Positions 6,816-54,594 of a stretch of 64,000 nt of DNA are shown here, piece after piece. How positions within the stretch are numbered: the first letter of the stretch is position 1; every line of letters starts with the position of its first letter. A model generated the notes under the pieces. It had not been told where the DNA came from, did not search any database, and worked only from the letters and a program-made list of their open reading frames with translations. The DNA lies in contig CAYLXA010000012.1 in NCBI GenBank assembly GCA_964387845.1, forward strand, positions 1 to 64,000. The letters run 5' to 3'. The DNA comes from an uncultured bacterium. GTDB taxonomy: Bacteria; Omnitrophota; Omnitrophia; Omnitrophales; Abzuiibacteriaceae. The position numbers and the translations under genes were made by a program.

Positions 6816-9161
6816 ATGGCGAATAATCCGAAGGCTTCCTCACAGCACCAACTCAAAGCGTTGCTGGTCGAGAAGGCGCCCGATGATGCAAAGGCGCTGA
6901 TGAAGATTCTTGACTCGACCAACAACGGCCATGTCTTCGATGTTGCTTGGGTTGACAAACTCGAGTTAGGACTTACCCAATTATCCAAACATCAATTCGA
7001 TGTTGTTCTGCTTGATTTATCACTTGCCGGCCACAGAGGCCTCAACGCTATTTCCAGAATCCGAAACTTGGTTGCTCATGCACCGATTGTAGTCCTCAAC
7101 AATATTCACGACGATGAGTTGATGGTTGAAGCTGCCCGGCAAGGCGCGCAGGATTATATCGTTAAGTCAGAAATCGATGCCAAAACGTTTACGCGGCTAA
7201 TTTTATACGCGATTGAACGTAAGCGTACGGCCGAAGCACTTCAGCAGACCGAAGCCAAGCATCGCCGTCAAAACCGCGTGCTAGAAGAACTCGCCAAGCG
7301 CAAAATTCTTGATTCAGGCGACCTTCGGACGGCTGTGATGGAAATTTCGGAAGCTGCAGCGCGAACGCTCAGTATTGAACGCGTCGGTGTTTGGCTGTTT
7401 GATGATGACCGGCTAAAACTTCATTGCATTGATCTTTTTCAATTATCCACCAAAAACCACTCGAGCGGCGTTGAAATGCTTGCCGTTCAATATCCTACTT
7501 ACTTTGAAGCGCTGAAAGGTGACCGTACAGTCTCCATTAATGATGTGCAGAAAGATGCCCGGACGGTTGAAATCGCGAAAGCGTATTTCGCGCCGCTTGG
7601 TGTCAACTCGGTCTTGGCAATGCCGGTCCGGCTTGGCAGCCAAATGGCAGGCGTGGTTTGCTATGAGCATGTAGGCCCGTCAAAAGCTTGGACTTCGGAG
7701 GAAGAAAACTTCGGTGATTCGATTGCGGATCTGGTATCGCTTGCGCTAGAAGCGTTTGAAGAAAGGCGCGTCAACCGCTTGGCGTATCACGACCGGCTGA
7801 CGGACCTTCCGAATCAAATGCTTCTCATGGACCGTTTGAATCAAGCGATCATTGCCGCGCGGTTTTACAATCAAATGGTTGCGGTTTTATTTATCGATTT
7901 AGACCAGTTGAAACGTATCAATGCCACTTTGGGGCATGCTTCGGGCGATCAATTGCTGCAGGCTGTTGCCGACCGTTTGCGGAAAGCGCTTTATGAAACT
8001 GATACCGTAACCAGAATCGGCGGTGATGAATTTGCTGTCCTCCTTCCGAAAATTACGCGCATGCAGGATGTGACGCGCGTCACCGAGAAAATTTTTAACG
8101 CACTTACGCCTTCCTTTATGATCAGCGGCCGCGAGATTTCCGTTAATTCCAACATCGGTGTCAGCATTTTCCCGAATGACGGAGAAGACGCCGAAACGCT
8201 TCTGAACAACGCCAATGCCGCAGTGACGGTTGCCAAGGAGCAAGGTCGAAACAGTTATCAATTTTATTCGCCTGCCATGAATGCGCATTCACTGGAACGG
8301 CTCGTGATTGCCAACGACCTTCGCCAGGCCATGCAGAACCAGGAATTGCGGGTTTATTATCAACCGATTGTTGATTTGGAAACGGGAAAGATCGCGGGCG
8401 CCGAAGCGCTTGTCCGGTGGGAGCGGCCGCATGTGGGCTTGGTATCGCCTGCGAAATTTATTCCGGTTGCGGAAGAAACGGGACTTATTGTTCCGATCGG
8501 TGAATGGGTATTGCGGACGGCATGTATTCAAAACAAGAAATGGCAGGCCTCAGGGCTTTCGCCGATTAATATTTCGGTGAACGTTTCGCCTCACCAATTT
8601 TATCAATCCAATTTGCCTGAACTTGTCGCGAAGGTGCTTACGGAGTCGGGCCTCAATCCAACCCATCTTAAACTTGAAATTACAGAAACCGCCATCATCC
8701 AAAACGCCGAGCAAACGATCAAGGCTCTGCATGAATTAAGCGCCATGGGCGTCAAGCTTTCGATCGATGATTTCGGAAAAGGGTATTGGCCGCTCAGTTA
8801 TTTGACGAGTTTCCCGATTGACCATCTAAAAATCGATTTATCCTTTGTCCAAAACGTTACACAAAACCCGAACGACCGGGCCATCGTCAAAGCGATTATA
8901 TCGATGGCACACAGCTTGAAGCTCGAAGTCGTTGCCGAGGGCGTTGAAACCGAGGATCAGCTTGAATTTTTTCAAAGAAGCAGTTGCGATTTTGTGCAAG
9001 GGTATTTATTTAGCAAGCCGGTTCCGATCCAGGAGTTTACCAAAATGCTTTCTGAAGATAAGAAGTTGGACCTAAAAAAAGTCAAAGTTTCCAGATCGTC
9101 CGGCACCAACGGCCACAGCCGCAAATCCGTTCGCCCCATTTCGACGCGTCCCACCAAATGA
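6816..9161 (+). CDS. c-di-GMP signalling protein: REC–GAF–GGDEF–EAL
   Basis: The REC domain has phospho-Asp in VVLLDLSL, but the conserved Thr is replaced by Asn (VVLNN). GGDEF is intact (RIGGDEF). EAL is intact (EALVRW, DDFGKGY, KIDLSFV, EGVET). Confidence 0.85.
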   Translation: MANNPKASSQHQLKALLVEKAPDDAKALMKILDSTNNGHVFDVAWVDKLELGLTQLSKHQFDVVLLDLSLAGHRGLNAISRIRNLVAHAPIVVLNNIHDDELMVEAARQGAQDYIVKSEIDAKTFTRLILYAIERKRTAEALQQTEAKHRRQNRVLEELAKRKILDSGDLRTAVMEISEAAARTLSIERVGVWLFDDDRLKLHCIDLFQLSTKNHSSGVEMLAVQYPTYFEALKGDRTVSINDVQKDARTVEIAKAYFAPLGVNSVLAMPVRLGSQMAGVVCYEHVGPSKAWTSEEENFGDSIADLVSLALEAFEERRVNRLAYHDRLTDLPNQMLLMDRLNQAIIAARFYNQMVAVLFIDLDQLKRINATLGHASGDQLLQAVADRLRKALYETDTVTRIGGDEFAVLLPKITRMQDVTRVTEKIFNALTPSFMISGREISVNSNIGVSIFPNDGEDAETLLNNANAAVTVAKEQGRNSYQFYSPAMNAHSLERLVIANDLRQAMQNQELRVYYQPIVDLETGKIAGAEALVRWERPHVGLVSPAKFIPVAEETGLIVPIGEWVLRTACIQNKKWQASGLSPINISVNVSPHQFYQSNLPELVAKVLTESGLNPTHLKLEITETAIIQNAEQTIKALHELSAMGVKLSIDDFGKGYWPLSYLTSFPIDHLKIDLSFVQNVTQNPNDRAIVKAIISMAHSLKLEVVAEGVETEDQLEFFQRSSCDFVQGYLFSKPVPIQEFTKMLSEDKKLDLKKVKVSRSSGTNGHSRKSVRPISTRPTK

Positions 9162-10807
9162 ATCCTGAAATTTCCGATCCGAAATCGCTAAGCCGTATCT
9201 TGCTGATCGAAGACGACCCTGCCGCAGCCCGTATTCTAAAAGCCTCGCTTGAAAGCGAGAGAAATCCGGCAATGAACATCCAATTGGCCAGCCGGATTGA
9301 AGAAGGGCTCCGCATTCTCGGGAATTCTTCCGTTGATTGCATTCTTCTGGATTTGAATTTACCTGACAGCAAAGGGCTTGAAACCATTACGAAGATCCAA
9401 GTCCAATCTCACAATATTCCGATTGTTGTCCTAACGGGTACCGATGATGATGAGATTGCTATCGAAGCGGTCCGGCGAGGCGCGCAGGACTATGTTATTA
9501 AAGGGCGGGTGGACGGAAAGGTTTTGTCCCGCATTATTCGTTATGCGATGGAGCGAAAACGTTTCGATGAAGTGCTTCGGGAAAGCGAGGCCCGGCACCG
9601 CCAGATTGCGGCCAATATTCCGGGTGCGATTTATCAATTCATGATGAAACCCGACGGTTCCGTATCATTTCCGTATATGAGCGACGGTATTTTCAAAATC
9701 TTAGGCATTCAAGCGGAGGAAATTGAAGCGGATTCCGCCAAAGCATTCGGCATGATTATTTCGGAAGATTTGGAACCCGTTAATCTCTCGATTTCAGAAT
9801 CTGCGAAGAAAATGACAATGTGGAAAAAAGAATTCCGGATTAAAACCGCGGGCGGGCAATTGAAGTGGCTGAGAGCAACGTCAAGCCCTCAACTCATGCC
9901 CAATCGTGACATTGTGTGGGATGGTGTAATTTTGGATGTAACGGATTTAAAAAATACGCAGGAAGAGCTTCAGGATGCTAATTTAGAAATTCATCACGTT
10001 TTGGAAAATCTAAAGAAAACGCATCTCGAACTTAAGGCAACACAATCGCAATTAATAGAAGCCGAAAAAATGGATTCGGTTGGGCGGCTTGCGGCCGGCG
10101 TTGCCCATGAAGTTAAAAATCCGCTGGCGATCATGCTGCAAGGAATCGAATATTTATCGAGCGTGATCCCGCCGAATAATTTGGCCGCGCTTTCAACGTT
10201 GCGCGATATTGAAGAAGCCGTGACGCGTGCCGATACGGTTATCCGCGGGTTGCTGGATTTTTCAAGTCTTTCCGAAAGTGTGTCGCGTCCTGAGAATATC
10301 CACGACATCATTGAAGAGGCGCTGTTGCTTGCGAAGCACGAATTTGAGCGCTGTAAAATCGAAGTCGTGACGGATTTCGAGAAGAATTTGCCAAAGGCAA
10401 GGCTTGACCAAAACCGGATGCAGCAAGTTTTCGTCAATTTGATCCTTAACTCTGTTTACGCGATGGAAAATGGCGGAACGCTTAGAATTATGACCAGGTC
10501 TTGCCAATTAAAGGAATTGAATTCCTATATTCAAAGCGGCCCTTATCAACATTACTTTGGTGAAAATGACAAGGTGATTCTCATAGAAGTTATAGATACA
10601 GGAACGGGCATTCCGGCCGATATATTGGGTAAGATTTTTGAACCCTTTTTTACAACCCGCCGCGGAAAAGGCGGCACGGGCCTCGGGTTACCGATCGTGA
10701 AAGGCATTGTTGAAATGCATAACGGAAGGATTCAGTTGGTTAATCAGCCGGAACGCGGGACAAAAGCCAGCATTATTTTGAAAGCTTGCGAGGAGAAAAA
10801 GCCATGA
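9158..10807 (+). CDS. Hybrid sensor histidine kinase with N-terminal receiver (REC–PAS–HisKA–HATPase)
   Basis: REC motifs IEDD...LLDLNLPD...VLTGT...K are present. The H-box is AAGVAHEVKNPLA. The ATPase G-boxes are DTGTGI and GGTGLGL. An ATGA overlap links it to the upstream gene. Confidence 0.85.
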   Translation: MNPEISDPKSLSRILLIEDDPAAARILKASLESERNPAMNIQLASRIEEGLRILGNSSVDCILLDLNLPDSKGLETITKIQVQSHNIPIVVLTGTDDDEIAIEAVRRGAQDYVIKGRVDGKVLSRIIRYAMERKRFDEVLRESEARHRQIAANIPGAIYQFMMKPDGSVSFPYMSDGIFKILGIQAEEIEADSAKAFGMIISEDLEPVNLSISESAKKMTMWKKEFRIKTAGGQLKWLRATSSPQLMPNRDIVWDGVILDVTDLKNTQEELQDANLEIHHVLENLKKTHLELKATQSQLIEAEKMDSVGRLAAGVAHEVKNPLAIMLQGIEYLSSVIPPNNLAALSTLRDIEEAVTRADTVIRGLLDFSSLSESVSRPENIHDIIEEALLLAKHEFERCKIEVVTDFEKNLPKARLDQNRMQQVFVNLILNSVYAMENGGTLRIMTRSCQLKELNSYIQSGPYQHYFGENDKVILIEVIDTGTGIPADILGKIFEPFFTTRRGKGGTGLGLPIVKGIVEMHNGRIQLVNQPERGTKASIILKACEEKKP

Positions 10808-17378: not shown

Positions 17379-20300
17379 ATGCCACCATTAATTGAGCGCA
17401 AGTCGTTTGCAACGATTCAAGATGCAATGGATTTGCCGAATTTAGTTGAAATTCAAATTCGGTCATATCAGGAGTTTTTGCAGACAGAACGTGCAAAAAA
17501 GCGCCGCAAGCGTCAGGGTTTGGAAGCCGTATTCCAGGAAGCGTTTCCGATCGAAAGTTTCGATGGAACCTGCAAATTGGAATACTTAGGGTATGTTTTG
17601 GGAAAACCCAAATACTCGATTCCTGAATGCCGCAAGCGCAGCATGACTCATGCCGCTCCTTTAAAAATTCGGCTTCGCATTGTCCGCAAAGGGGAAGCGA
17701 AAGAACAGGAAGTGTATATTGGCGAGTTGCCTCTCATGACCGAAACGGGCACCTTCATTATTAATGGTGCCGAACGTGTTGTGGTCAGCCAATTACACCG
17801 TTCACCCGGCATTTCGCTTGAACAAACGCTCCACCCAAGCGGCAAAAAGATTTATAGCGTCCGCATTATTCCGTATCGCGGCGCCTGGATTGAATTCGAA
17901 GGCGACATTAATGACATTCTTTATGCGTACATTGACCGCCGCCGCAAAATTTTGGCGACGACCTTGCTTCGCTCAATCGGATTTTCGACCAGCGAAGACG
18001 TTATTAAAGCTCTTTACGCGACTGAGAAAGTGAAAGATTTTGACCGCGGTTCTTTCAAGAAATTAGAAAACACAGTTCTCGCAAAAAGTATTTTAGATCC
18101 AAAGTCAAAAGAAGTTTTAATTCCGGCCGGCACCAAGCTGACCAAGGAAGTTTTAACAACGCTTGCCAGCCATGATATTTCGGATCTTGAAATCATCCGC
18201 GGAAATCAAGATGATTTCGCGATCTGCAAAACGCTTGAGCGCGACCAATACAGCAGCAAAGAAGAAGCACAAATTGCGATTTACCGCAGGACCCGGCCCG
18301 GCGATCCGCCGACTCCGGAAAGCGCGCAGGATTTGATTAACAAATTGTTCTTTGATTCACAGCGTTATGATCTCGGCCAAGTCGGCCGGTTTATGATTAA
18401 CCGCAAACTTTCTCTGGATGTTCCAATTGAGAAAACCGTGCTGCGTCCCGAAGACGTTGCAAAAGCAGTTCAAGCACTCTTGAGACTCCGTAGCGGTGAA
18501 TTGAAAGTTGATGACATCGATCACTTGGGCAACCGCCGCGTCCGTTCAGTCGGCGAATTGCTTGAGAATCAATTCCGTGTCGGCCTTGCCCGCATGAAGC
18601 GTTCGGCGCTTGAGCGGATGTCAATTTACGATTTGGATGCCGCGATGCCGCACAACCTGATCAACCCGAAATTGATTTCGGCTGCGATCAAGGATTTCTT
18701 CGGCAGAAGCCAGTTGTCGCAATTTATGGATCAAACGAACCCGCTCGCCGAACTCACGCACAAACGTCGTCTTTCGGCTCTTGGGCCCGGCGGTTTGTCG
18801 CGCGAACGCGCAGGCTTCGAAGTCCGCGACGTTCATCCGTCTCACTACGGCCGTATTTGCCCGGTTGAGACACCGGAAGGCCCGAACATTGGTTTGATCG
18901 CGTCGCTCAGTACTTTTGCACGCGTTAACGATATCGGATTTTTGGAAAGCCCGTACCGCAAAATCGAAAAGGGCCGAGCGACCGAAAAGATCGATTTTCT
19001 ATCTGCCGATTTGGAAGATAAGTATGTGATTGCGCAAGCCAACGCCCGTTTGGATAAGAAGAGCAACTTTGTTGATGACTTGGTTGCGACACGATTCCGC
19101 GGAGATTTCCCGAAAAAAGATCCGCGCGAAATCGATTACATGGACGTTTCGCCGCGTCAGCTGGTGTCGGTAGCAGCTTCATTAATTCCGTTCTTGGAGC
19201 ATGACGACGCAAACCGCGCACTGATGGGTTCGAACATGCAGCGCCAAGCGGTTCCTTTGATGGAAACCGAAGCGCCGCTCGTCGGAACCGGTATGGAATA
19301 CCGTGTGGCGGTTGATTCCGGAGCGGTTGTCAGCGCAAAAGAGCGCGGAACCGTTAAGGCCGTTTCGTCAAACGAAGTCGTTGTCGATGACATTGTTTAT
19401 AAATTGAGAAAGTTTGAACGTTCCAACGCCGGCACTTGCATCAATCAGCGTCCGCTCGTGGAACTTGGACAAAAAATTAAGCGCGGCGATGCAATTGCAG
19501 ACGGTGCAGCCACTCAAAAGGGTGAGCTCGCGATGGGTCGTAACGTGCTCGCGGCATTTTTGCCTTGGCGCGGATACAACTTTGAAGACGCAATCGTGCT
19601 CAGTGAAAAACTCGTGAAGGAAGATACTTATACTTCGCTTCATATCGAAGAGTTTGAAATCGAAGCGCGTGATACGAAGCTCGGCAACGAAGAAATTACG
19701 CGCGATATTCCGAATGTCTCGGAAGAAGCGCTGAAAGATTTGGACGAAGAAGGTATTATCCGCATCGGCGCGGAAGTAAAACCGGGCGATATTTTGGTCG
19801 GAAAAATCACGCCGAAATCGGAAACTGAATTGTCGCCTGAAGAAAAACTTCTCCGTGCAATTTTTGGTGAAAAAGCAGGCGATGTCCGCGATGCGTCTCT
19901 CACGGTTCCTCCGGGAGTCGAAGGCGTGGTGGTGGATGTGAAAGTGTTTGCGCGTAAAGAATCGCGCGCCCGCACACGCGAAGAGCGCCGTCAGGAATTT
20001 AAAGAAATCGAAGATATTAAGGAACGTTATCAATCCCGGATCGATACGCTCAAACAGGAGCGTTTGAACAAAGTGTCCGGCATGATTATCGGCAAGCGCT
20101 TATCGGATGATTTGGTGGACGATGTGCTCGGCGAGGTATTGCTCAAGTCCGGTAAAGTGATTGACAAGAAAGACCTTAAAAAGTTTGAAGATTGTGATTG
20201 GGAATCCATCCGCATTGAAGATGAGCCGGAGCTCGAAGAGAGCATCCGCAAAATCGCGCGTGTGTGGAGCGATGAAATCGACGAGCTCGTTGAAGAACGT

Positions 20301-21185
20301 GCCCGCGAAATTGATCGTGTGAAAAAAGGCGACGAACTTCCGCCCGGCGTCATTAAGCGCGTGGTAGCGTATGTTTGTTCGAAGCGCAAAATTTCGGTCG
20401 GCGATAAAATGGCAGGCCGTCACGGGAACAAAGGCGTGATTGCGAAAATTCTGCCTGAAGAAGATATGCCGTTTTTACCGGATGGCACACCGGTTGAAAT
20501 CGTACTCAACCCGCTCGGCGTTCCTTCGCGTATGAACGTGGGCCAAATTCTGGAAACGCACTTGGGTTGGGCGGCAAAAGCGCTCGGAATTCATGTGATG
20601 ACACCGGTTTTCTCCGGCGCATCCGAATCCGATATCAAGGCGCTTTTAAGGGAAGCAAAACTTCCTGAGGACGGTAAAGTGATTTTAAGGGATGGCCGCT
20701 CAGGAAACCGTTTTGATGAAAAAGTAACCGTCGGCTACATCTATATGATGAAACTTGCGCACATGGCGGATGACAAGATCCATGCGCGTTCGATCGGGCC
20801 TTACTCGCTCGTCACACAGCAGCCGCTCGGAGGCAAAGCACAATTCGGCGGTCAGCGGTTCGGCGAAATGGAAGTATGGGCACTCGAAGCTTACGGCGCC
20901 GCGTTTACACTTCAAGAGCTTTTGACAGTAAAGAGCGACGACGTCGTTGGTAGAACCAAAGTTTATGAAGCGATCGTTAAGGGTGAGCCTGCGCTTCATG
21001 CAGGAACGCCGGAATCGTTTAACGTGCTCGTGAAGGAATTACAAAGCCTTGCTTTGGATATCCGTCCCGAAAAGAAACAATCGGCGATCCGCGCAAGCGA
21101 AAAGGCCGAGAAGCCGCTCAGCAGCGCACAGAAACGTTCTGAAGAACGTAAAGAAAAAGCCAAAGAAAAATTGGGAATAGCATAA
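17379..21185 (+). CDS. rpoB: DNA-directed RNA polymerase subunit beta
   Basis: Length is 1268 aa with conserved beta-subunit blocks. Confidence 0.97.
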
Positions 21186-43619: not shown

Positions 43620-44615
43620 ATGGGAATTCGTTGGAAAACATTTGAAACACCAAAGCGCCTGGAAGTAGAGAAGTCAACCTTGACGCCTACTTACGGCAAA
43701 TTTGTGGCAGAGCCTTTTGAAAGAGGTTTCGGCGTCACGATCGGAAACGCGCTCCGCCGCGTTCTGATTTCATCGATTGACGGCGCAGCTGTGTCGCATA
43801 TCAAGATTGACGGCGCGATGCATGAGTTTTCGGTGATTGACGGCGTCATGGAAGATGTTGCACAAATCGTGCTCAACATCAAGAAGCTCGTGCTGCGTTA
43901 TCACGGAAAAGATGCGAAGAAAATCGTGATCGATGTGCACAAAAAGGGCGAAATTACGGGCCGCGATATTCAGGCGGATGAAACGCTTGAAATCATCAAC
44001 CCGAATCAGCATATTGCCACGCTTACGAAAGACGTTAAGTTTTATATGGAAATGGAAGTTGCGCGCGGCCGCGGCTACATGCCGGCTGACCGTAACAAAA
44101 AAGATGGTGCGCCGATCGGCTCTATCGCGATCGACTCGATCTTTTCACCGGTCACCAAGGTCAATTACTTTGTCGAAGAAACCCGTGTCGGCCAGATGAC
44201 CGATTACGACCGTTTGATCGTCGAAGTATGGACCAATGGTGCCGTAAACCCTGAAGAGGCAATGCTTTACGCATCAAACATCCTTCAGCGCCATCTCGAT
44301 ATTTTTGTCAACTACGGCGAGCTTCCGGAAGAGGAAGAAGAGGAAGAAGAGGAGGATAAAGATTTTCTTGAACTCATCAACAAACCGATCACAGAACTCG
44401 AGCTTTCGGTTCGCAGCGCCAATTGCTTGGAGGCTGCCAGCATTAAGACAATCGGTGATCTTATCCAGAAAAGCGAAGCGCAGATGCTGAAATATAAAAA
44501 TTTCGGCAAGAAATCGCTTGTTGAAATTCAAAATATTCTTACCGGCATGGGCCTGCAGTTGGGCATGGATGTTCAGGACCGGATGAAGAAAAAGAAAGAA
44601 ACAGTGGCAGGGTAA
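43620..44615 (+). CDS. rpoA: DNA-directed RNA polymerase subunit alpha (poly-Glu linker)
   Basis: NTD and CTD are present. The linker is [11 protein letters not shown]. Confidence 0.95.
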
Positions 44616-44616
44616 A

Positions 44617-45195
44617 ATGTGGCATCAAAGACAGCGCGGCAGGTTAGGGCTTGAAACGGAACACCGGGTATCGCTTTTGCGGAATCTCGCCAAGGAACTG
44701 GTCGAGCATCACCGTGTGATCACCACACGCAAACGCGCAAAAGAAGCCTCGAAGTTTGCCGATAGGCTCATTACCATTGCGAAGAAACAAACTTTGCATG
44801 CACGCCGTCTGCTCATCTCTGAATTAGGTTCAGGCTCCGAATTGGTTGCGAAGCAATTGATCGAGAAAATCGCACCGAAGTTTTCCGACCGTAAAGGCGG
44901 CTATACGCGCGTGCTTCAATATAAATTCCGAAAAGGTGACGGTGCCGAACTTGCGCTATTAGAGTTTTCGACCCAAATCGCTGAGCCGAAAGCGCCGAAG
45001 CAAAAGAAGGAAAAGAAGAAAAAGCCGGAAACGGGTGAAGCAAAAAAAGAGCACGCTCATCCGCACACACACGAAAAGCCAAAAGAGCCGAAAAAAGAAG
45101 CCAAAAAGGCCGAAGAAAAGAAAACCGGCGAGACCCCGAAAAAGGGCGGTTTCCTGGGCGGCCTTCGTAAATTCTTAACCGGCAAAGACGAATAA
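44617..45195 (+). CDS. rplQ: 50S ribosomal protein L17 with roughly 70-aa Lys/Glu/Pro-rich C-terminal extension
   Basis: An L17 core is followed by a low-complexity basic tail. Confidence 0.9.
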   Translation: MWHQRQRGRLGLETEHRVSLLRNLAKELVEHHRVITTRKRAKEASKFADRLITIAKKQTLHARRLLISELGSGSELVAKQLIEKIAPKFSDRKGGYTRVLQYKFRKGDGAELALLEFSTQIAEPKAPKQKKEKKKKPETGEAKKEHAHPHTHEKPKEPKKEAKKAEEKKTGETPKKGGFLGGLRKFLTGKDE

Positions 45196-45198
45196 TTC

Positions 45199-46383
45199 AT
45201 GAGCCGATTGGCCAATCGCGTTCAAAAAGTCACGCCTTCGCAGACGCTTGCCATCGAAGCAAAGGCCAAGCAGATGAAACAGCAAGGCATTAACGTTGTT
45301 TCGTTTTCTGCCGGCGAGCCCGATTTCGATACTCCGGATTACATTAAAGAAAAAACCATCGAATCCCTGAAAAAGGGTTTTACCAAATACACGCCTGCAC
45401 CGGGAACGCCCGAATTACGCGAATCCATTTCCAAAAAATTGGCTGCCGAAAACGGCTTAAAATATGATCCGAGCCAAATCATTGTTTCCTGCGGCGCCAA
45501 GCATTCGATTTACAATATTTTCCAAGTGCTGCTAAACGAAGGCGACGAAGTCGTATTCCAGAGCCCGTTTTGGCTGAGCTACCCTGAAATGGCAACATTG
45601 GCGGGCGCCAAGTCCGTTATTGTTCCGACTACTAAAGAACAGGACTACAAATTATCCGCTGCAGCGCTTGAAAAAGCCATCACGCCCAAAACCAAATTGC
45701 TCGTACTCAATTCACCGTCTAACCCGACGGGAGCCGTGCTCAACAAAAAAGAATTAATGGAAATAGCGGAAGTTTGCAAAAAGAAATCCATTTTTGTCCT
45801 GAGCGATGAGATTTACGAAAAACTGGTTTACGACGGCGAAAAGCATTATTCGATCGGTTCTTTCGATGAGGATATTTTGAAATTGACGATTACCGTCAAC
45901 GGCGCAAGCAAAGCTTACGCGATGACCGGCTGGCGCCTGGGTTATGCGGCTTGCCCGAAGGAAATTGCAAACGCTGCGTCTTCGCTGCAAAGCCATTCCA
46001 CATCAAACCCGACATCGTTTGCACAAGTCGGCTTTCTGGAAGCTATTAAACAAGGCGATAACTTTCCAAACCAGATGCGCGAAGCTTATGAAGTGCGCAG
46101 AAACTTGATGGTCGATCTTTTGAATGAAATTCCCGGCTTCAGCGCATTTAAGCCGAAGGGTGCTTTTTACGTATTTTGCGATATTTCCGGAACCAAAATG
46201 TCTTCGTTAGATCTTTCTGCCAAGCTGCTTGAAGAAGCCAAAGTGGCGGTTGTGCCCGGTGTTGCATTTGGCGACGATAAAGCGATCCGCCTCAGTTTCG
46301 CGACGTCGGAAACCCAAATCCGCGAAGGCGTCAAACGTATTGCCGAATGGTTCAATAAGAGCCCGGTTTCTGTTAAGTCGTAA
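45199..46383 (+). CDS. Class I/II PLP-dependent aminotransferase (aspartate aminotransferase-like)
   Basis: The Schiff-base lysine lies in SKAYAMTGWRLGY. NPTG is present. Confidence 0.8.
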   Translation: MSRLANRVQKVTPSQTLAIEAKAKQMKQQGINVVSFSAGEPDFDTPDYIKEKTIESLKKGFTKYTPAPGTPELRESISKKLAAENGLKYDPSQIIVSCGAKHSIYNIFQVLLNEGDEVVFQSPFWLSYPEMATLAGAKSVIVPTTKEQDYKLSAAALEKAITPKTKLLVLNSPSNPTGAVLNKKELMEIAEVCKKKSIFVLSDEIYEKLVYDGEKHYSIGSFDEDILKLTITVNGASKAYAMTGWRLGYAACPKEIANAASSLQSHSTSNPTSFAQVGFLEAIKQGDNFPNQMREAYEVRRNLMVDLLNEIPGFSAFKPKGAFYVFCDISGTKMSSLDLSAKLLEEAKVAVVPGVAFGDDKAIRLSFATSETQIREGVKRIAEWFNKSPVSVKS

Positions 46384-46434
46384 CGATTTTCCTCCGTTTT
46401 TCTTTCCCCGAGTTTCCTAGTATAATTCAAATTT

Positions 46435-48336
46435 ATGAAATCCCTTTTCCAGCTCCGGGTCGGAGAAAAAATAGAAAAAGACGAACTCATCGACAAACTT
46501 TTCGAACTCAATTATGTCGAGGAGCGCTCCGTCGGTTCCCCGGGTGAATTTGCGCATCGGGGCGGTATTGTCGATATTTACCCAATCTCTTACCGCGCGC
46601 CTGTGCGGGTTCATTTTCATCTAGACCAAATCGAATCCATCCGCGATTTCTCGCCCGAGCAGGGCAAAAGCCTGACCACATTCGAAGAACTTTTCCTGAT
46701 GCCGGCAAGCGACCTTTTTCTCAAACGAAAGAGCCGGATGCGCGAGCGTTTTGAATCCTTTGAGCCCTTAACCGAAATCGGCGACGTCAAACAGGGCTCT
46801 TTGGTTGTTCATCTCCAGTATGGCGTGGGGCGCTTTTTAGGCGCCAAAATGCTTAATATCGACGGTAAATCAAAACGCCACCTGGCCATTGAATATGCCG
46901 ACAAAGAGATCCTTTACGTTCCTGCAGACGGCCATGAACCGATTGAGCGTTACATCGGCGTTGAGGGCAAGCGGCCGAAACTCACCAAACTCCACAGCAA
47001 AGAGTGGATCCGCATCAAAGAAAAGGCGCGGCTTGCGGCACGCGGCGTTGCGCGTGATATCGTCACGCTGCAGGCGAAGCGCAGCATCTTAAAAGGATTC
47101 GCGTTTGCCGAGGACCACGATTGGCAAAAAGATTTTGAAAATAAATTTCCGTTTGAACTTACACCCGACCAAAAAAAATCGGTTGAAGAAGTGAAGCGCG
47201 ATATGGAAAGCGAAAAACCGATGGACCGTTTGATTTGCGGCGATGTGGGTTACGGAAAAACCGAAGTTGCGTTCCGCGCTGTTTTCAAAGCCGTCATGAA
47301 TGCCAAACAGGTTGCGATTTTAGCGCCGACCACGATTTTGGCGGAGCAGCATTATGTGGTCCTGAAGAAACGCGCCAAAGATTTCCCGGTAAAAATAGAG
47401 CTTCTCTCCCGGTTTCGTTCGAAAGCGGAACAAAAAGAAGCAATTCGCCAAGTGGCGGATGGCGCTGTTGATGTGATTATCGGGACACACCGGCTTTTGT
47501 CGTCTGATGTGAAATTTCGTGACTTGGGACTTGTCGTGATCGATGAGGAACAGCGCTTCGGCGTCCGCCACAAAGACCGCTTGAAGCATTTGCGCGAGCT
47601 GGTTGATGTTCTGACGCTCACCGCAACGCCGATTCCGCGTACGCTTTACCTTTCGCTTTTGGGATCACGCGATATGTCGATTATCAGCACGCCGCCGAAG
47701 CAGCGGCTCCCGATTATTACGCAAGTTTTGGAATTCGATGATCTGATCGTGAAACAAGCGATTGACCGCGAGCTTGCACGTAAGGGCCAGGTTTATTTTG
47801 TCCACAACCGGATTGAATCCATCGAAAAAATCCACGCGCATTTGCACGGGCTTTTGCCGCGCATCAAGTTCGGTGTGGCGCACGGGCAAATGAATGCACA
47901 TGAACTTGAAAAAGTGATGACGCAATTTATCGACGGCAAAATTGATTGCCTGATTTCAACCAACATCATCGAATCCGGCCTCGATATTCCGAACGTGAAT
48001 ACGATCTTAATTAACCGCGCGGATGCATTCGGTTTGGCGGATCTGTATCAATTGCGGGGCCGTGTGGGGCGCTATCATACGGAACGTCAGGCCTATGCCT
48101 ATTTCTTGATTCCGCGCAACTGGGTGATGACGCAGGATGCCGAAAAGCGGCTTTCAGCGATTGAGCGCTTCAGCGAACTTGGTTCCGGCTTTAAAATCGC
48201 GATGGAAGACCTCGAAATTCGCGGTGCCGGGAATGTGCTCGGGGAAGAACAGAGCGGATTTATTTACCAAGTGGGGTTTGACCTCTACTGCCGGATGCTC
48301 CGAAAGGCCATTGACGAGGAAAAATCCCATCTGTAA
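46435..48336 (+). CDS. mfd: Transcription-repair coupling factor Mfd, minimal form (D2–RID–translocase; no D1a/D1b/D3/D7)
   Basis: The helicase motifs are GDVGYGKTE, DEEQRFGV, TATPIPRT and QLRGRVGR. The RID-like stretch is VVHLQYGVGRF. Length is 633 aa against about 1150 for canonical Mfd. Confidence 0.75.
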   Translation: MKSLFQLRVGEKIEKDELIDKLFELNYVEERSVGSPGEFAHRGGIVDIYPISYRAPVRVHFHLDQIESIRDFSPEQGKSLTTFEELFLMPASDLFLKRKSRMRERFESFEPLTEIGDVKQGSLVVHLQYGVGRFLGAKMLNIDGKSKRHLAIEYADKEILYVPADGHEPIERYIGVEGKRPKLTKLHSKEWIRIKEKARLAARGVARDIVTLQAKRSILKGFAFAEDHDWQKDFENKFPFELTPDQKKSVEEVKRDMESEKPMDRLICGDVGYGKTEVAFRAVFKAVMNAKQVAILAPTTILAEQHYVVLKKRAKDFPVKIELLSRFRSKAEQKEAIRQVADGAVDVIIGTHRLLSSDVKFRDLGLVVIDEEQRFGVRHKDRLKHLRELVDVLTLTATPIPRTLYLSLLGSRDMSIISTPPKQRLPIITQVLEFDDLIVKQAIDRELARKGQVYFVHNRIESIEKIHAHLHGLLPRIKFGVAHGQMNAHELEKVMTQFIDGKIDCLISTNIIESGLDIPNVNTILINRADAFGLADLYQLRGRVGRYHTERQAYAYFLIPRNWVMTQDAEKRLSAIERFSELGSGFKIAMEDLEIRGAGNVLGEEQSGFIYQVGFDLYCRMLRKAIDEEKSHL

Positions 48337-48391
48337 AGCAGGCCCAGAGAGGTTGAAAAAAGGGCTTCTGTGTGATAACTTAAGAATTCTT

Positions 48392-49372
48392 ATGTCTGCC
48401 AAAATCTTTAGAAATACACTTCTTTTATTGCTTGCAGCGTTGCTTCAAAGCACTTTCGTGCACGCCAGGGAAGCGCTTGTGGACCGCATTGTGGCAACCG
48501 TCAGCGACGAAGTCATCACGCAAAGCGAATTAGACGCGCTTTTTCGTCCTGTTGCCGAACAGTTCCAAGGTGTTTATCAGGGGCAGGAACTCATGGAAAA
48601 ATTAACGGAGACTCGGAACAAACTGCTCAGCCAGCTGATTGAAGATAAGCTGGTTTTGCTTGAAGCCAAGCGGATGGACATTGATGCATCGGAATCAGAA
48701 ATCAACGAGCGGCTCGATGAACTAAAAAGCCAATTTCCGGATGAGGCGGCTTTTCAGAAGGCTTTAGAGGATCAGCAAGTTACTTTGACCACTTTGAGAA
48801 AGCGCATGGCGGAGCAGGTTATTATTCAAAAACTTCATTATATAGAGATTCGCCAGAAAATCATTGTTTCACCCTCCGAAATTCAGGAGTATTTCAATGC
48901 TCATCCAGAACAGTTTCAAGATAAAGCCAAAGTGGAAATTTGGACGATTGCTATTCGAAAGAAGCCTGAAGCTGCCCAGCGCGGCATCGCGGATGAAGCC
49001 GCAAAACAAAAAGCTGAAATAATCCTAAAGGAATTAAGATCCGGCAAGGATTTCTCAGAGATTGCCAGGAAAGAATCCGGCGATTCTCATGCGGCGAAGG
49101 GCGGTTTGATAGGCATGGTTCAAAAAGGCGATTTGATAGAGGAAATTGATAATGCTATATTTCAATTAGAATCGAATCAGATTTCGGATATTGTAGAAAC
49201 TGCCCATGCTTATCATATTTTTAAAGCCGGGAGCAAGCAGCCTGAAAAAAAACTGACATTCGAGGAAGCCAAAGACCAGATTTCGGATTTTCTTTTCCGT
49301 CAGAAAGCCAGCACGCGTTTTAAAGAATGGATGCAAGAACTTCGAAAAAAATCCTACATTTCAATCCGGTAG
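48392..49372 (+). CDS. surA: SurA-like periplasmic chaperone / parvulin PPIase
   Basis: A signal peptide is followed by a SurA N-domain and a parvulin domain (SGDSHAAKGGLIG). Confidence 0.7.
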   Translation: MSAKIFRNTLLLLLAALLQSTFVHAREALVDRIVATVSDEVITQSELDALFRPVAEQFQGVYQGQELMEKLTETRNKLLSQLIEDKLVLLEAKRMDIDASESEINERLDELKSQFPDEAAFQKALEDQQVTLTTLRKRMAEQVIIQKLHYIEIRQKIIVSPSEIQEYFNAHPEQFQDKAKVEIWTIAIRKKPEAAQRGIADEAAKQKAEIILKELRSGKDFSEIARKESGDSHAAKGGLIGMVQKGDLIEEIDNAIFQLESNQISDIVETAHAYHIFKAGSKQPEKKLTFEEAKDQISDFLFRQKASTRFKEWMQELRKKSYISIR

Positions 49373-50360: not shown

Positions 50361-50505
50361 TTTAAGTACTAAATAGTTCTATTTATAGCTATATATATGT
50401 AAATTATCACCTAAAAATTTGACTTTAACCATCATCTCAGATATATTATTATCTAATCACTCAGTAAAATCTAAATTCCGTTTTGGACGGGGGTTTTTAC
50501 CCTTC

Positions 50506-53500
50506 ATGAAACAAAAATTAAAGCCGGCAGAGCGCTTACTCATAGCGTTGTTTGTATCGATCTTCACGTTTTCTGCGGTGGTATCGGCTGCTCCTCAGTC
50601 TTCCGGCTTTCTACACGCTTACGAGGCAGAAAGTTTTCTGGGTCCTGTATTGGCATCGCTCCCGCGTGATGTCTCCAAAGTTAGCGAGACATTCGTTCCT
50701 GCCCATTGCTCAGTCGGTCAAGCGGATTGCCCGGTTATTCTGCACATCCAGGATGCCCACGCCAATCCTGAAGCGCAAAAGCATATTCAAGAAATTATCG
50801 AGGCCGTGTACCGCCGGTTTGGTAATGTCCGGATTGCCGTTGAAAATGCGGAAGGGCCGCTTGATCCGGAGATTTTCAATCGCTCACCAATCGATCCTGT
50901 TATGCGGGAGAAGATCGTTCAGGCTTTGGCGAATGAAGGCGAGCTCACTGGCGCAGAATTGTTTTTGCTGGATCTTTACAGAGAAGGGAAAGAAAAGCCT
51001 GCTCATGTTCCCGTATTGGGTGTTGAGGATCAGGCGTTGTATTTTAAAAATTTGGATCGTTACTTAACGCTTTTACAAAATCGAAAAACCATCGACGCAT
51101 CTTTCTCAAAACTGAACGATCTTTTTGTCCGAACGAAAAGCCTTCACTTTAATCCGGCGCTGAAGCAGTTTGATGACGAGCGCAAAGCGCATTCTCAAAA
51201 CCGGCGTGAACTTTTGTCATATTTGAAAACACTGAATGCTCGGGCTCAGTCGATCCTCAATACAGACTTGTCCGATCCTATCGAACAGCTCCGCTTTCCA
51301 AATTTAACCCGGCTTGCGCGTCTTGGGCAATTGGAAGAAAGTTGGAAAGATGAAGAATTAAGTGAAGAAAGAGCGCAGTTAGAAGCAGAATTGCTTAAGC
51401 GGGGAGGTTCGTCGGATGTGATAGCCGAACTGATTCAATCGATTAAAGCGCTTAGCCAGAAACCGGAAAAATTTGGTGTTGATTTTAAAATCGCGCCGCG
51501 TCTATTGCTCGAGCAGATGGAATTTTTTGCGCGTAGACATCAGGTCAATTTAGCTTCCTACTCTCGCCTCATTCGTTTTGTTTCGTTTCAAGTTTTACAG
51601 TCTGAAATTAATGCGGTAGAGCTTTTTGGTGAAATCCACCATTTGGAAAATTCGATTTTAGGCCGCCTGGCCGAAAGTGCAGAAGAAAAAAAGCTCGTTG
51701 AAATCGGCCGGTCTATGGCGTTGCTTCAGAAAATGTTGCACGGAGAAGTGACTAGAGCGGACAAAGAGCGCTTTTCTGAACAGCAGAATCAAATAGGTCC
51801 CGCCGCAATTGTTGGAGAGTTATTTGAGCTTAATCCAAAGATATCATCGACAATCCGTGCAGATATGATTCAGCCGATTGAGCTGTTGAAACGGTTTTTG
51901 TCGGCGTCTGCCGAGTTTTATCATGGCGCAGAGGCGCGCGAACATGCCATGATCGACAAAGCGCTTCAGATGCTGCCCAAGCGCAACTCATTTACGCTTT
52001 CAGAAATACAAAACAGTAATAGGCAGGTTCTTGTTTTAATTTCAGGAGGATATCACACGGGTGGTTTCGAACAAATTCTTGAAGCAAAACAAATTCCTTA
52101 CGTAGTTGTATCACCTCGCATGTTCTTGCCCATAGACGATCAAATGTATGCGCGTGTCATGTTGGGTCGTGATGATGAAATTTCAGGCCTTTCTTCCGGA
52201 ACCGCACAAAATATCTTTAGGCCTCTTTTGACATGGAATATTAACTCTGCGCATCGAAATCAAACGCTGGTTCGGCTGCAAGAATCCCTGCAGGCGCATG
52301 AAAGCAGAAGCGAGTTAAGAGCTGATCAGCCCAACGTCCGCTTTTTATCGCGTACCGCGGAAGCTGAAGTGATGCAGTTCGTGCAGGATATTAAGAAAAG
52401 GTTTGAGAATAAATATTATAAATTCATCGAGGAACCAAAGATTCTTGAGGGTGTTGCTGCTTTTTTTGGATTGAATGAGGAAAACGATCTTCTTCTACAC
52501 GAAAAAGCAAAGCAGATTCTATCTTACTTAATCAAAAAAACGAAAAGAGAAGTTAAAGAAATGTATCGATCGCAAATCGTTGAGGCTCTTACCAAAGTTA
52601 CGCGTCACTCAACAGGTGCTCATCGTTTTATGCCGCTTGCGCTTGCCGTTGTGAACATGTTCCGCGGCCAGAATATTTTTTCATCGGATATTATCAGCGA
52701 ACTTGTCGCTATAGACAATTCTTTCGAATATTTAAGAAATACAGATCACCTTTATGCCAATCCTTTTAACGTCGAGTCTAACTGGATTTCTGACCATTTG
52801 CCAAAATTGGCGATTCCCAGAATTCCTTCAAAGAGAGTATATCGATGGCTGGATATTGGATCCGGCCCTAAGTTGGATGGAGCACCTACCCTTCATTTGT
52901 TAAACGAAACTTTCAAAAGCGCTTTACCGGATGCGCGGTTTGAGTTTGTCGGTACAGACAACTTCTTTCCGGCTTATTCATTCGATGACGAATCAGTTTT
53001 ATTTTTTACCGGCCGGATTTCTTCTAGCCCATTTAATTCCGATGCGTTTCGTAAATCAGGCAAGATGAATTTGGCGGACGTTACTTATTTGGATGCCAAT
53101 TTTCCTCAGAATAATGTGATGGATGAGAGATCTATGGAAGGGATGTTTAAGGACGGGCCGTTTGATTTTATTTCTTTAAGCATGGCCCTTCATTTTTTGC
53201 GGGAGCCTGACGAGGAAATAAAGAAATTGGCGTTATCGAGCAATAAAGGTGAAGACCAATTTGAATTTTATGACGAATCAGGCAGCCGGATTCGTCCCAC
53301 GCCTACTTATTTGCTGACCGAAACGCAAAGAAGAGTCATTTGGCGCTTAATGCGAAACCTGTCTGACAACGGCATTTTATTTTTAAACTTACCTTGGGGC
53401 CCCGAATATGCGAAAAATCACAACCTTGATCTATTTTTAATCATCCAACGCGAAAATGCCGTTGCGTTTAAGCTTTACACTCAGGCGATTCCCTTTAGAC

Positions 53501-54594
53501 CAACGCTTCGAAAGTTTTCATCCGGGGATTATTTAACAGTCGGTTATCAAGGTAAAGAAAAAATGGGAACCGTTTATCATAGCCCGGGGATATTTCATTT
53601 ATATCCCGGCCGCGATGAAGCTTTCTACAACCAAGTGCGGACTTTTCTTCACATAGCAGACATTATGGTTTACCGGCATCAGGAGAGAGATAAATCTGCC
53701 TGGTCTAGCGTTATGCGTGCAGCCGAACAAATTGCAAATCATGCGTCGCTGGAAGAGATATTTCGTAGTTATATGGCCAACGTTCCCGACCATGAAGTTA
53801 CAAAAGGATTGATCTTGAACAAGGTCCAGCAGTTAGAAAAAACGGTGACAGATAGCCGTTCTGAGCTTCGATTTTCGTTTCAAGACGTAGTTGAAGAATT
53901 GCAAGCCATCATTGACGCATCGCAGCGTGCCGGATTTACTCCGGTTCCTGAATTTTTAAAGACCCAGCATCCTAATTTGTCAGCTGATTTGAGCCGGATT
54001 GGTGAACTTACTTCTGTTTTGCATGCAATCACTTTTCCAAATACACAGAAACCACAACCTGTAGTGGGCCAGGTTGTGAAAGTGATTGATGCCCAAGATT
54101 TTGATCCCGCTCAATATCAATCCGTAATGGATGATTTGATCGATCGTGGAGTCAAATTGGTTCTTGCAGTTCAAAATCACAATCCGCAAACTTTTAAAGC
54201 TATCAAAAACAAGCTGAATCAATTGCTGATTAAAGCCGCACAAGAAAAAGGTTTTGCACCGGATGATGTCATCAACCGGCTGGCTGTTGAATCGTTTAGC
54301 TCGGCGACTGCGCAAGAAATTCAAAAATTGATTGCAACACGGGATTTGATTAATGCATCCGCAGTAATTTCCGAAGATTCAAGCATCTTAGAAAACGTTC
54401 GGTCCGCGCTTCGATTTTTAGATGACACACGCCACGAGCCGGAGTTGTCTGCCGTTGCATTGAAGGAAGTTGTAAAAGCGGTTACGAATCCGAAAGCGGT
54501 TCAGAATCGTTTTGGCGTGATCAGTTTAAGCGATTGGTTAAGTACGAAACTGACGGTGATCTTAGGCGAGCGTCAGGCAGCGATATCTGCCTAA
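50506..54594 (+). CDS. Large uncharacterised secreted or membrane-anchored protein (1363 aa) with TraB/GumN/TIKI-like and methyltransferase-like motifs
   Basis: The N-terminus is a signal peptide or TM anchor. ILHIQDAHAN...IAVE and LISGGYHTGGF resemble the two His motifs of TraB/TIKI. WLDIGSGPKLDG resembles SAM MTase motif I. The ORF may start at 50419. Confidence 0.6.
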   Translation: MKQKLKPAERLLIALFVSIFTFSAVVSAAPQSSGFLHAYEAESFLGPVLASLPRDVSKVSETFVPAHCSVGQADCPVILHIQDAHANPEAQKHIQEIIEAVYRRFGNVRIAVENAEGPLDPEIFNRSPIDPVMREKIVQALANEGELTGAELFLLDLYREGKEKPAHVPVLGVEDQALYFKNLDRYLTLLQNRKTIDASFSKLNDLFVRTKSLHFNPALKQFDDERKAHSQNRRELLSYLKTLNARAQSILNTDLSDPIEQLRFPNLTRLARLGQLEESWKDEELSEERAQLEAELLKRGGSSDVIAELIQSIKALSQKPEKFGVDFKIAPRLLLEQMEFFARRHQVNLASYSRLIRFVSFQVLQSEINAVELFGEIHHLENSILGRLAESAEEKKLVEIGRSMALLQKMLHGEVTRADKERFSEQQNQIGPAAIVGELFELNPKISSTIRADMIQPIELLKRFLSASAEFYHGAEAREHAMIDKALQMLPKRNSFTLSEIQNSNRQVLVLISGGYHTGGFEQILEAKQIPYVVVSPRMFLPIDDQMYARVMLGRDDEISGLSSGTAQNIFRPLLTWNINSAHRNQTLVRLQESLQAHESRSELRADQPNVRFLSRTAEAEVMQFVQDIKKRFENKYYKFIEEPKILEGVAAFFGLNEENDLLLHEKAKQILSYLIKKTKREVKEMYRSQIVEALTKVTRHSTGAHRFMPLALAVVNMFRGQNIFSSDIISELVAIDNSFEYLRNTDHLYANPFNVESNWISDHLPKLAIPRIPSKRVYRWLDIGSGPKLDGAPTLHLLNETFKSALPDARFEFVGTDNFFPAYSFDDESVLFFTGRISSSPFNSDAFRKSGKMNLADVTYLDANFPQNNVMDERSMEGMFKDGPFDFISLSMALHFLREPDEEIKKLALSSNKGEDQFEFYDESGSRIRPTPTYLLTETQRRVIWRLMRNLSDNGILFLNLPWGPEYAKNHNLDLFLIIQRENAVAFKLYTQAIPFRPTLRKFSSGDYLTVGYQGKEKMGTVYHSPGIFHLYPGRDEAFYNQVRTFLHIADIMVYRHQERDKSAWSSVMRAAEQIANHASLEEIFRSYMANVPDHEVTKGLILNKVQQLEKTVTDSRSELRFSFQDVVEELQAIIDASQRAGFTPVPEFLKTQHPNLSADLSRIGELTSVLHAITFPNTQKPQPVVGQVVKVIDAQDFDPAQYQSVMDDLIDRGVKLVLAVQNHNPQTFKAIKNKLNQLLIKAAQEKGFAPDDVINRLAVESFSSATAQEIQKLIATRDLINASAVISEDSSILENVRSALRFLDDTRHEPELSAVALKEVVKAVTNPKAVQNRFGVISLSDWLSTKLTVILGERQAAISA

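Follow-up and report, generated by a model that had tools for sequence, protein, structure and literature searches.

We analyzed a 64,000-nucleotide window of DNA from an uncultured bacterium of the Omnitrophota (assembly GCA_964387845.1, contig CAYLXA010000012.1, positions 1 to 64,000 of the forward strand), which carries an unusually short gene for Mfd, or transcription-repair coupling factor (TRCF). It lies between an aminotransferase gene and surA (Table 1). It is an intact open reading frame (ORF) of 633 amino acids (aa) plus a stop codon, and it begins at the first possible start codon after the in-frame upstream stop. We call its product mini-Mfd; NCBI and Logan assemblies already include the identical protein. 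An earlier note on this DNA had described the product as a minimal Mfd in which the UvrB-homology domain D2 and the RNA polymerase (RNAP)-interacting domain (RID) are fused directly to the translocase, without D1a, D1b, D3, or D7. Pfam, profile hidden Markov models (HMMs), and an alignment to the nearest canonical Mfd all agree with that description.

Is such a short protein an Mfd? It scores 876.1 bits against the Mfd equivalog model TIGR00580.2 (cutoff, 800), matching profile positions 283 to 820 of 907 plus a second stretch, and its best matches among PDB chains are Mfd chains (phmmer, E about 1e-176). The RID stands just upstream of the motor, and the motor is RecG-like, with the TRG motif, relay, and hooks of the Mfd/TRCF family. 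Against the full-length enterobacterial model PRK10689/NF007966, the score is 646 bits versus a cutoff of 1329; the complete UvrB-homology module (D1a-D2-D1b) with D3 is missing, as is the C-terminal D7. Judged by its sequence, mini-Mfd is an Mfd, but its architecture departs from the canonical one twice, having neither D7 nor the complete UvrB-homology module with D3.

Several searches define what is present and what is absent. Pfam recognizes UvrB_inter at residues 6 to 93 (E = 1.3e-22), CarD_TRCF_RID at 119 to 174 (E = 4.9e-12), DEAD at 243 to 403, and Helicase_C at 443 to 547. It finds no match in mini-Mfd to PF03461 (TRCF/D7) or PF21132 (MFD_D3), both of which were detected in E. coli Mfd as a control; PF03461 was also positive in Treponema and Phycisphaerae Mfds. 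With phmmer against PDB chains, residues 7 to 98 correspond to E. coli Mfd 130 to 221 (D2) and residues 80 to 630 to E. coli 435 to 987 (the end of D3 and the linker, RID, D5, and D6), leaving E. coli residues 1 to 129, 222 to 434, and 988 to 1148 with no counterpart. Individual E. coli domains used as tblastn queries on the window recovered the RID (E = 3.9e-11), D5 (E = 6.5e-82, 58% identity), and D6 (E = 4.2e-67, 51% identity). The D2 of mini-Mfd also aligns to UvrB at about residues 159 to 265.

The spacing between these parts needs some correction relative to the earlier note, which had placed a D2-like segment about 20 aa before the RID. That distance is close for the domain borders, since 25 aa separate the end of D2 (residue 93) from the start of the RID (residue 119), but the string it quoted occupies residues 27 to 50 and lies 73 aa from the RID motif VVHLQYGVGRF (residues 124 to 134). 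The note also had the protein ending about 20 aa after the TRG/hook region. This is roughly right when counted from the TRG motif (R596 to Q606), which is some 20 to 30 aa from the end, but not from the second-hook-helix string GFDLYCRMLRKAIDE (residues 614 to 628), after which the C terminus is 5 aa further. Within the family, the linker at residues 94 to 118 is the least conserved segment (40% mean pairwise identity), and the TRG motif with the hooks is the most conserved (80%). Motif II reads DEEQ where E. coli has DEEH; we do not consider this a special trait, as DEEQ is the norm in canonical relatives. An AlphaFold2 model from a 30-sequence alignment (pLDDT 69.9; pTM 0.56, which makes the geometry between domains unreliable) gives a confident D2 (pLDDT about 86 to 91), a reasonable motor, and low-confidence linkers. 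It contains a helix at residues 93 to 107, followed by a low-pLDDT stretch at 105 to 124, and a long helix at 189 to 218 that includes the relay (about 189 to 215). Foldseek searches with this model, which is of moderate quality overall but credible domain by domain, rank Mfd structures first.

Table 1. Features of the mini-mfd locus and of rpoB in the 64,000-nucleotide window
Feature	Coordinates	Strand	Evidence
Complete mini-mfd coding sequence, 633 aa + stop	46435..48336	+	ORF; TIGR00580; PDB Mfd chains
D2, UvrB-homology (UvrA-interaction) domain, residues 6-93; N-terminal, no D1a ahead	46450..46713	+	PF17757 UvrB_inter 2-90/91, E 1.3e-22
Linker, residues 94-118, in place of D1b, D3, and the D3-RID tether	46714..46788	+	Aligns to E. 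coli 435-472, end of D3 + linker
D4, RNAP-interacting domain (RID), residues 119-174	46789..46956	+	PF02559 CarD_TRCF_RID 2-57/57, E 4.9e-12
RID-motor connector and relay helix, residues 175-215; W191 at 47005-47007	46957..47079	+	Model helix; W191 = E. coli W550
D5, translocase domain 1 (TD1); Walker A GDVGYGKT, motif II DEEQ	47080..47697	+	tblastn with E. coli D5; Pfam DEAD
D6, translocase domain 2 (TD2); TRG motif and two hook helices; protein ends 2 aa on, no D7	47701..48327	+	tblastn with E. coli D6; Pfam Helicase_C
Upstream intergenic spacer, 51 bp; lone TATAAT at 46422-46427, no Shine-Dalgarno sequence	46384..46434	+	Sequence reading
Downstream spacer, 55 bp, up to surA; too small for D7	48337..48391	+	ORFs; D7 HMM negative in all frames
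Aminotransferase, upstream neighbor	45199..46383	+	Pfam Aminotran_1_2; upstream in about 20 Omnitrophota loci
surA, downstream neighbor, then pdxA	48392..49372	+	SurA_N and Rotamase Pfam matches
rpoB, presumed binding partner of the RID; beta-protrusion patch AKEQEVY	17379..21185	+	54% identity to E. coli RpoB

The extent of the loss can be seen against the nearest canonical Mfd, a 1136-aa protein from candidate division NPL-UPA2 (P0122). The global alignment (53% identity, 631 aligned columns) has three clean gaps, at P0122 residues 2 to 137 (D1a, about 136 aa), 227 to 465 (D1b and D3, about 232 aa), and 1000 to 1136 (D7, about 137 aa), which together amount to 505 aa. The earlier note had allowed that the domains might be present in divergent form; because the gaps are clean, we conclude that they are not. 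The architecture would have arisen from a full-length Mfd by three in-frame deletions that took D1a, D1b with D3, and D7. These would leave D2, tethered over 25 aa to the RID, followed by the relay helix and by TD1-TD2, which includes the TRG motif and the hook helices.

The short form is not peculiar to this contig. All of the 120 best database relatives (63 to 72% identity) are 629 to 683 aa long and have the same Pfam content; of those with a source name, almost all are labelled Candidatus Omnitrophica or Omnitrophota, and two are named only as "bacterium" or Verrucomicrobiae. Starting instead from L026, the Omnitrophota member that diverges most (55% core identity to the window protein), we recovered at least 120 further clusters; those listed are all 609 to 655 aa long, without PF03461, and assigned to Omnitrophota wherever named. 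The mini-Mfd architecture is therefore found in at least 240 protein clusters from two deep Omnitrophota sub-clades, at 609 to 683 aa, and no Omnitrophota-labelled protein longer than 683 aa is among the 240 relatives listed. When one genome per GTDB species was scanned, 24 complete Omnitrophota loci had ORFs of 599 to 679 aa, in which no more than 45 aa could precede the match and no more than 18 aa could follow it. In the same scan, relatives from Treponema, Phycisphaerae, and Opitutae are 1089 to 1162 aa long, with about 150 extra N-terminal, 210 internal, and 160 C-terminal residues. An exhaustive search of 50%-identity representatives found 2 short proteins among the 150 nearest, the other 148 being 1006 to 1393 aa, a pattern in which the short form is placed as a compact clade nested among canonical Mfds. 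Every sampled Omnitrophota member carries a half-size Mfd, which is apparently its sole Mfd. About 20 of the Omnitrophota loci share the arrangement rpoA-rplQ-aminotransferase-mfd-surA-pdxA-ksgA, and in most of the loci mini-mfd is followed by surA-pdxA-ksgA; this conserved synteny indicates that mini-mfd is the vertically inherited mfd ortholog.

Could the gene nevertheless be a frameshifted, fragmented, or misassembled canonical mfd, with the missing domains in other frames or nearby? The prior expectation of a protein of about 1000 to 1390 aa, as in those 148 representatives, would favor this. However, with the aminotransferase gene extending to 46383 and surA beginning at 48392, the gaps beside mini-mfd are 51 and 55 bp and leave no room for the missing domains, just as the earlier note had stated. 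E. coli D1a, D1b, D3, and D7 used as tblastn queries against all six frames of the window gave a best E value of 0.9. We also took 148 canonical Mfds together with E. coli Mfd, built profile HMMs for D1a, D2, D1b, D3, RID, and D7 from them, and ran these on all stop-to-stop translations of the window and of fetched loci (about 430 kb of DNA, mostly from more than 25 Omnitrophota genomes). The D2 and RID HMMs were positive in the window and in all Omnitrophota loci; the D1a, D1b, D3, and D7 HMMs had no match in the window or the Omnitrophota loci, whichever frame was read, and some of these loci included 1 to 3 kb of extra flank. As controls, the D1a, D3, and D7 HMMs were each positive in the canonical relatives whose gene sequence includes the part concerned (Treponema, Phycisphaerae, Opitutae, Atopobium, and Salinispira), the weaker D1b HMM was positive in five canonical relatives, and the D7 HMM also matched a protein from Marinamargulisbacteria that is described below. 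A database search with only the D7 of the nearest canonical Mfd gave 3 matches and is uninformative, since the word index does not cope with a domain as divergent as D7. The same short ORF recurs in the 24 independent species-representative genomes and the 240 or more clusters, and the ratio of nonsynonymous to synonymous substitution rates (dN/dS) is far under 1 throughout. D1a, D1b, D3, and D7 are truly absent from mini-Mfd, and we give practically no credence to an assembly or frameshift artefact.

Databases already hold these proteins and annotate them in part, but annotation pipelines name them inconsistently. In the second sub-clade, NCBI names include "CarD family transcriptional regulator," "DEAD/DEAH box helicase," and "helicase-related protein" (P0288, P0291, P0307, and others). 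Evidently, in many genomes the short architecture does not reach the threshold for an Mfd name. We rejected membership in the CarD/CdnL family, which is defined by a RID-like domain and a C-terminal helical domain without a helicase motor; here a full superfamily 2 motor follows the RID, and the label is a misnaming. Two genomes show further variation. In Omnitrophica GWA2_52_8 (L024:5980-7779, + strand), the 599-aa mini-Mfd has lost the C-terminal portion of D2 through an internal deletion behind the second conserved arginine region, which could be a further reduction or an error in the metagenome-assembled genome (MAG). The groundwater MAG JACQQN01 has two different mini-mfd copies on separate contigs (L037:1-378 and L003), one with 72% and one with 91% identity to the window protein. 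The latter copy consists of a 3' fragment only, which also ends without D7. The two copies most likely reflect a mixed bin rather than a paralog.

Key residues of the motor, the relay, and the RID are invariant or conservatively replaced, and the D2 arginine pair is invariant too. In a family alignment of 30 mini-Mfd members, the following are invariant: Walker A K275 and motif II E371 (E. coli K634 and E730); R572, R596, and Q606 of TRG (E. coli R929, R953, and Q963); W191 of the relay (E. coli W550); and R42 and R58 of D2 (E. coli R165 and R181). V613, equivalent to E. coli I970, is V or I across the family, and all 30 have I, L, or F at L140 of the RID, equivalent to E. coli L499. The E. 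coli residues R165 and R181 form part of the D2:D7 interface and have also been proposed to contact UvrA (PMC3025350). Since mini-Mfd has no D7, UvrA binding would be the simplest reason for R42 and R58 to be invariant. From 56 ortholog pairs, we estimate dN/dS at about 0.13 for D2, 0.07 to 0.09 for the RID and relay, and 0.04 for the motor, values that are approximate because dS is close to 1. D2 is more relaxed than the motor, yet it is clearly under purifying selection and so is not a decaying remnant.

Altogether, we consider it likely that mini-Mfd is the single orthologous mfd product of these organisms and a naturally minimized, functional coupling factor without the D2:D7 latch. By analogy with E. 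coli Mfd, we infer RNAP binding, translocation, UvrA recruitment, and a lack of auto-inhibition. In the mechanism that we propose, the RID would dock on the beta-protrusion of a stalled RNAP, and the RecG-like motor would translocate on the upstream duplex and push or displace the polymerase. D2, on a flexible tether and never masked by D7, would recruit UvrA2B through its conserved arginine pair. With the D2:D7 latch and the D1-D3 clamp absent, auto-regulation would be left to the hook-relay interface (W191/V613), and a retuned, less hydrophobic UvrA-binding surface might provide a second control. The earlier note had proposed that loss of D7 leaves the protein constitutively de-repressed. 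Such an effect would be a sensible extension of what is seen with E. coli Mfd ΔD7 (PMC3025350, PMC3488230), tempered by the conservation in mini-Mfd of the hook-relay layer (E. coli W550/I970) and by the change at the UvrA-surface position F185 described below. A fuller version, in which transcription-coupled repair (TCR) in Omnitrophota proceeds with a never-latched Mfd whose D2 is permanently exposed on its 25-aa tether and whose control falls to the hook-relay switch and a weakened UvrA surface, is more tentative, and we would rate it at somewhat below even. If it is true, the loading choreography by which E. coli Mfd hides its UvrA site would be a lineage-specific refinement rather than a mechanistic requirement, and mini-Mfd would be a natural minimal TCR machine and a simpler structural target.

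Several observations weigh against mini-Mfd as a functional coupling factor. E. coli F185, the third residue of the "D2 AAA" UvrA-surface triple, corresponds to residue 62 of D2. Of 30 minis, 28 have a polar residue there (E, H, D, Q, or S) and none an aromatic one, whereas in canonical Mfds the position is hydrophobic in 126 of 149 (85%), with F, W, or Y in 114. The UvrA interface is thus altered and could be weakened or lost. It may be that UvrA affinity is retuned through this position; a polar residue 62 may lower the affinity, so that the free protein would not sequester UvrA. The second interface has changed as well. The RID binds Mfd to the beta-protrusion through residues mapped in E. 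coli RpoB, where I117A disrupts Mfd binding (PMC3001067); the window RpoB keeps K118 and E119 (E. coli numbering), but it has Ala at the I117 position and a 9-aa deletion just before the patch. Judging from these substitutions, both interfaces, D2-UvrA and RID-RpoB, have drifted, and co-evolution with their partners is likely. In addition, Haines et al. (2012) judged a permanently activated Mfd unlikely in cells (PMC3488230). A contact between D2 and the motor in cis could be read from the AlphaFold2 model; we discarded it, as a pTM of 0.56 is too low for docking, which also means that the model does not decide whether D2 docks in cis.

What, then, might a drifted D2 be for? It is conceivable, though in our view improbable, that mini-Mfd is an RNAP-displacing or anti-backtracking translocase uncoupled from nucleotide excision repair, with D2 kept for docking on the motor in cis as a residual auto-inhibitor, for another partner, or for fold stability. 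The polar F185 position would fit this, as would the roughly threefold faster evolution of D2 than of the motor and the persistence of the Buchnera, Wigglesworthia, and chloroplast Mfds without a repair-coupling role (PMC3488230). In those atypical Mfds, however, D2 is gone with the whole module and uvrABC is absent, whereas here D2 alone is selectively retained with R42 and R58 invariant, and some canonical Mfds, those of Treponema, likewise have a polar residue (D) at the F185 position. The repair partners also appear to be available. The part of Seymour et al. 2023 available to us (PMC10066038), a table of KEGG Orthology counts, gives uvrA, uvrB, uvrC, recG (K03655), and mfd (K03723, whether short or long) as 1 each in two Omnitrophota MAGs of different classes: genome 58, of the order B26-G9 and 94% complete, and genome 231, of the class Velamenicoccia and 93% complete. 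When E. coli UvrA and UvrB were used as tblastn queries on 432 kb of locus DNA, the matches were cross-matches to D2 in canonical Mfds and no uvr gene was detected, a result that applies to these loci and not to the remainder of each genome.

The missing parts might also be supplied in trans, if D7, D1a/D1b/D3, or a second full-length Mfd were encoded elsewhere. The searches for these parts covered locus DNA and not whole genomes, and the D7-only search, with its 3 uninformative matches, did not settle the matter; both points leave some room for such a split or duplicated system and so also count against a single minimal factor. Still, no such ORFs occur in the roughly 430 kb around mini-mfd, the counts of PMC10066038 record a single K03723 in each of two MAGs that are at least 92% complete, the 240 listed relatives include no longer Omnitrophota-labelled protein, and the conserved gene order identifies mini-mfd as the ortholog. 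We regard a split system as quite unlikely, more so than an uncoupled translocase, and retain the minimized coupling factor as the preferred interpretation.

Several other features of the window deserve mention. The perfect TATAAT 7 nt 5' of the mfd ATG (Table 1), with no Shine-Dalgarno sequence, makes a leaderless or short-leader mfd transcript possible. As a promoter, this TATAAT is not supported: a consensus scan finds no matching -35 element, and the site counts are at chance level. The product of rpoA (43620..44615, + strand) has nine consecutive Glu and then DKD between its N- and C-terminal domains, and rplQ (44617..45195, + strand) encodes an L17 of 192 aa with a long Lys/Glu-rich C-terminal tail. 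Right after pdxA, a 1391-aa ORF (50419..54594, + strand; 1362 aa by the gene caller) has no Pfam match, and its only similarity is a 24% tblastn match in one other Omnitrophota locus (L008); by eye, its "WLDIGSGPK" is reminiscent of motif I of S-adenosylmethionine methyltransferases. At 6816..10807 (+ strand), a response-regulator-GAF-GGDEF-EAL protein (781 aa) overlaps by 4 bp a receiver-PAS-HisKA-HATPase hybrid kinase (549 aa), which is ordinary signalling content.

How does mini-Mfd compare with known systems? With canonical Mfd/TRCF (E. coli, 1148 aa, PDB 2EYQ; M. smegmatis, M. tuberculosis, and T. thermophilus), it shares D2, RID, relay helix, TD1/TD2, TRG, and hooks, as well as the catalytic and coupling residues. 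Canonical Mfds also have D1a, D1b, D3, and D7 (505 aa in the nearest relative), and hence the D2:D7 latch and the D1-D3 clamp, both of which mini-Mfd lacks, and a mostly hydrophobic F185 position where mini-Mfd is polar. In current models, masking of D2 by D7 and repositioning of D1-D3 prevent premature UvrA recruitment (eLife 2021, PMC7864632; NAR 2026, PMC13365950).

The nearest experimental parallel is E. coli Mfd ΔD7, which likewise has no functional D7 and an unmasked D2. Removal of D7 or mutation of the D2:D7 interface, as in the ΔD7 and D7 AAA proteins, raises ATPase activity and allows RNAP-independent translocation (Manelyte et al. 2010, PMC3025350; Haines et al. 2012, PMC3488230). 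These proteins inhibit the UvrA GTPase, which for Mfd ΔD7 was taken to reflect an unmasked UvrA surface, yet strand-specific repair is kept, for Mfd ΔD7 in vitro (PMC3025350); a section heading of the same paper states TCR in vivo as well. The UvrB-homology module, with its D2 surface, is essential in E. coli Mfd (PMC3025350), and the hook-relay interface (W550/I970) is a separate layer of auto-regulation (Haines et al., PMC3488230). The ΔD7 constructs keep D1a, D1b, and D3, whereas mini-Mfd is a natural, selected form without these as well. By this analogy, it is in effect a natural ΔD7 that would also have shed the D1-D3 clamp.

Among natural forms, the shortened Mfds of Buchnera aphidicola, Wigglesworthia glossinidia, and Arabidopsis chloroplasts also keep the RID, motor, and hook-relay interface, but they have lost D2 with its module and kept D7, and uvrABC is absent (PMC3488230). 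Mini-Mfd is the reverse, with D2 present, D7 absent, and uvrABC in the phylum, and so does not belong to this atypical type. RecG has a homologous motor with the TRG motif (NCBIfam RecG models, E about 1e-121; PDB 1GM5), but its wedge domain is absent from mini-Mfd, which has D2 and RID instead, and all RecG equivalog scores are far below their cutoffs (best, 405.9 bits versus 718). In the literature that we searched, on Mfd in Omnitrophica/Omnitrophota, on natural D7-less Mfds, and on surveys of Mfd architecture, we found no description of a D2-RID-motor Mfd and no paper that links Mfd to Omnitrophota; the only natural atypical Mfds there are of the Buchnera, Wigglesworthia, and chloroplast type (PMC3488230). 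A 2026 preprint on complete Omnitrophota genomes (bioRxiv 10.64898/2026.06.07.730766) has no mention of mfd or uvr in its text or in one of its supplementary files.

The closest structural counterpart comes from a Marinamargulisbacteria MAG (CAYHOI010000046.1; L035:6004-8088, + strand), whose 694-aa Mfd also begins with D2, has a short linker to the RID, and is without D1a, D1b, and D3. This protein keeps the first half of D7 (PF03461 positions 2 to 60 of 95), with the E/D/R latch cluster, and a Phe at the F185 position, neither of which is found in mini-Mfd. Its core is 51 to 53.5% identical to canonical Mfds and 47 to 49.7% identical to Omnitrophota minis. On this basis we rejected a shared origin of the two short forms, by margins of about 2 to 4 percentage points and from identities rather than a tree. 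The comparison suggests that N-terminal reduction arose at least twice and that complete loss of D7 is, among the sequences examined, specific to Omnitrophota.

An Mfd with the UvrA-binding domain but no D7 or D1a/D1b/D3, in every sampled member of a phylum, is a natural experiment on which parts of the coupling factor are essential and which are regulatory, and at 72 kDa mini-Mfd is a compact construct for biochemistry and cryo-electron microscopy. A three-way contrast, of canonical Mfds, the Marinamargulisbacteria form (of the UvrB-homology module, D2 only, with latch and Phe kept), and the Omnitrophota form (D2 only, with latch and Phe lost), makes the role of the latch testable.

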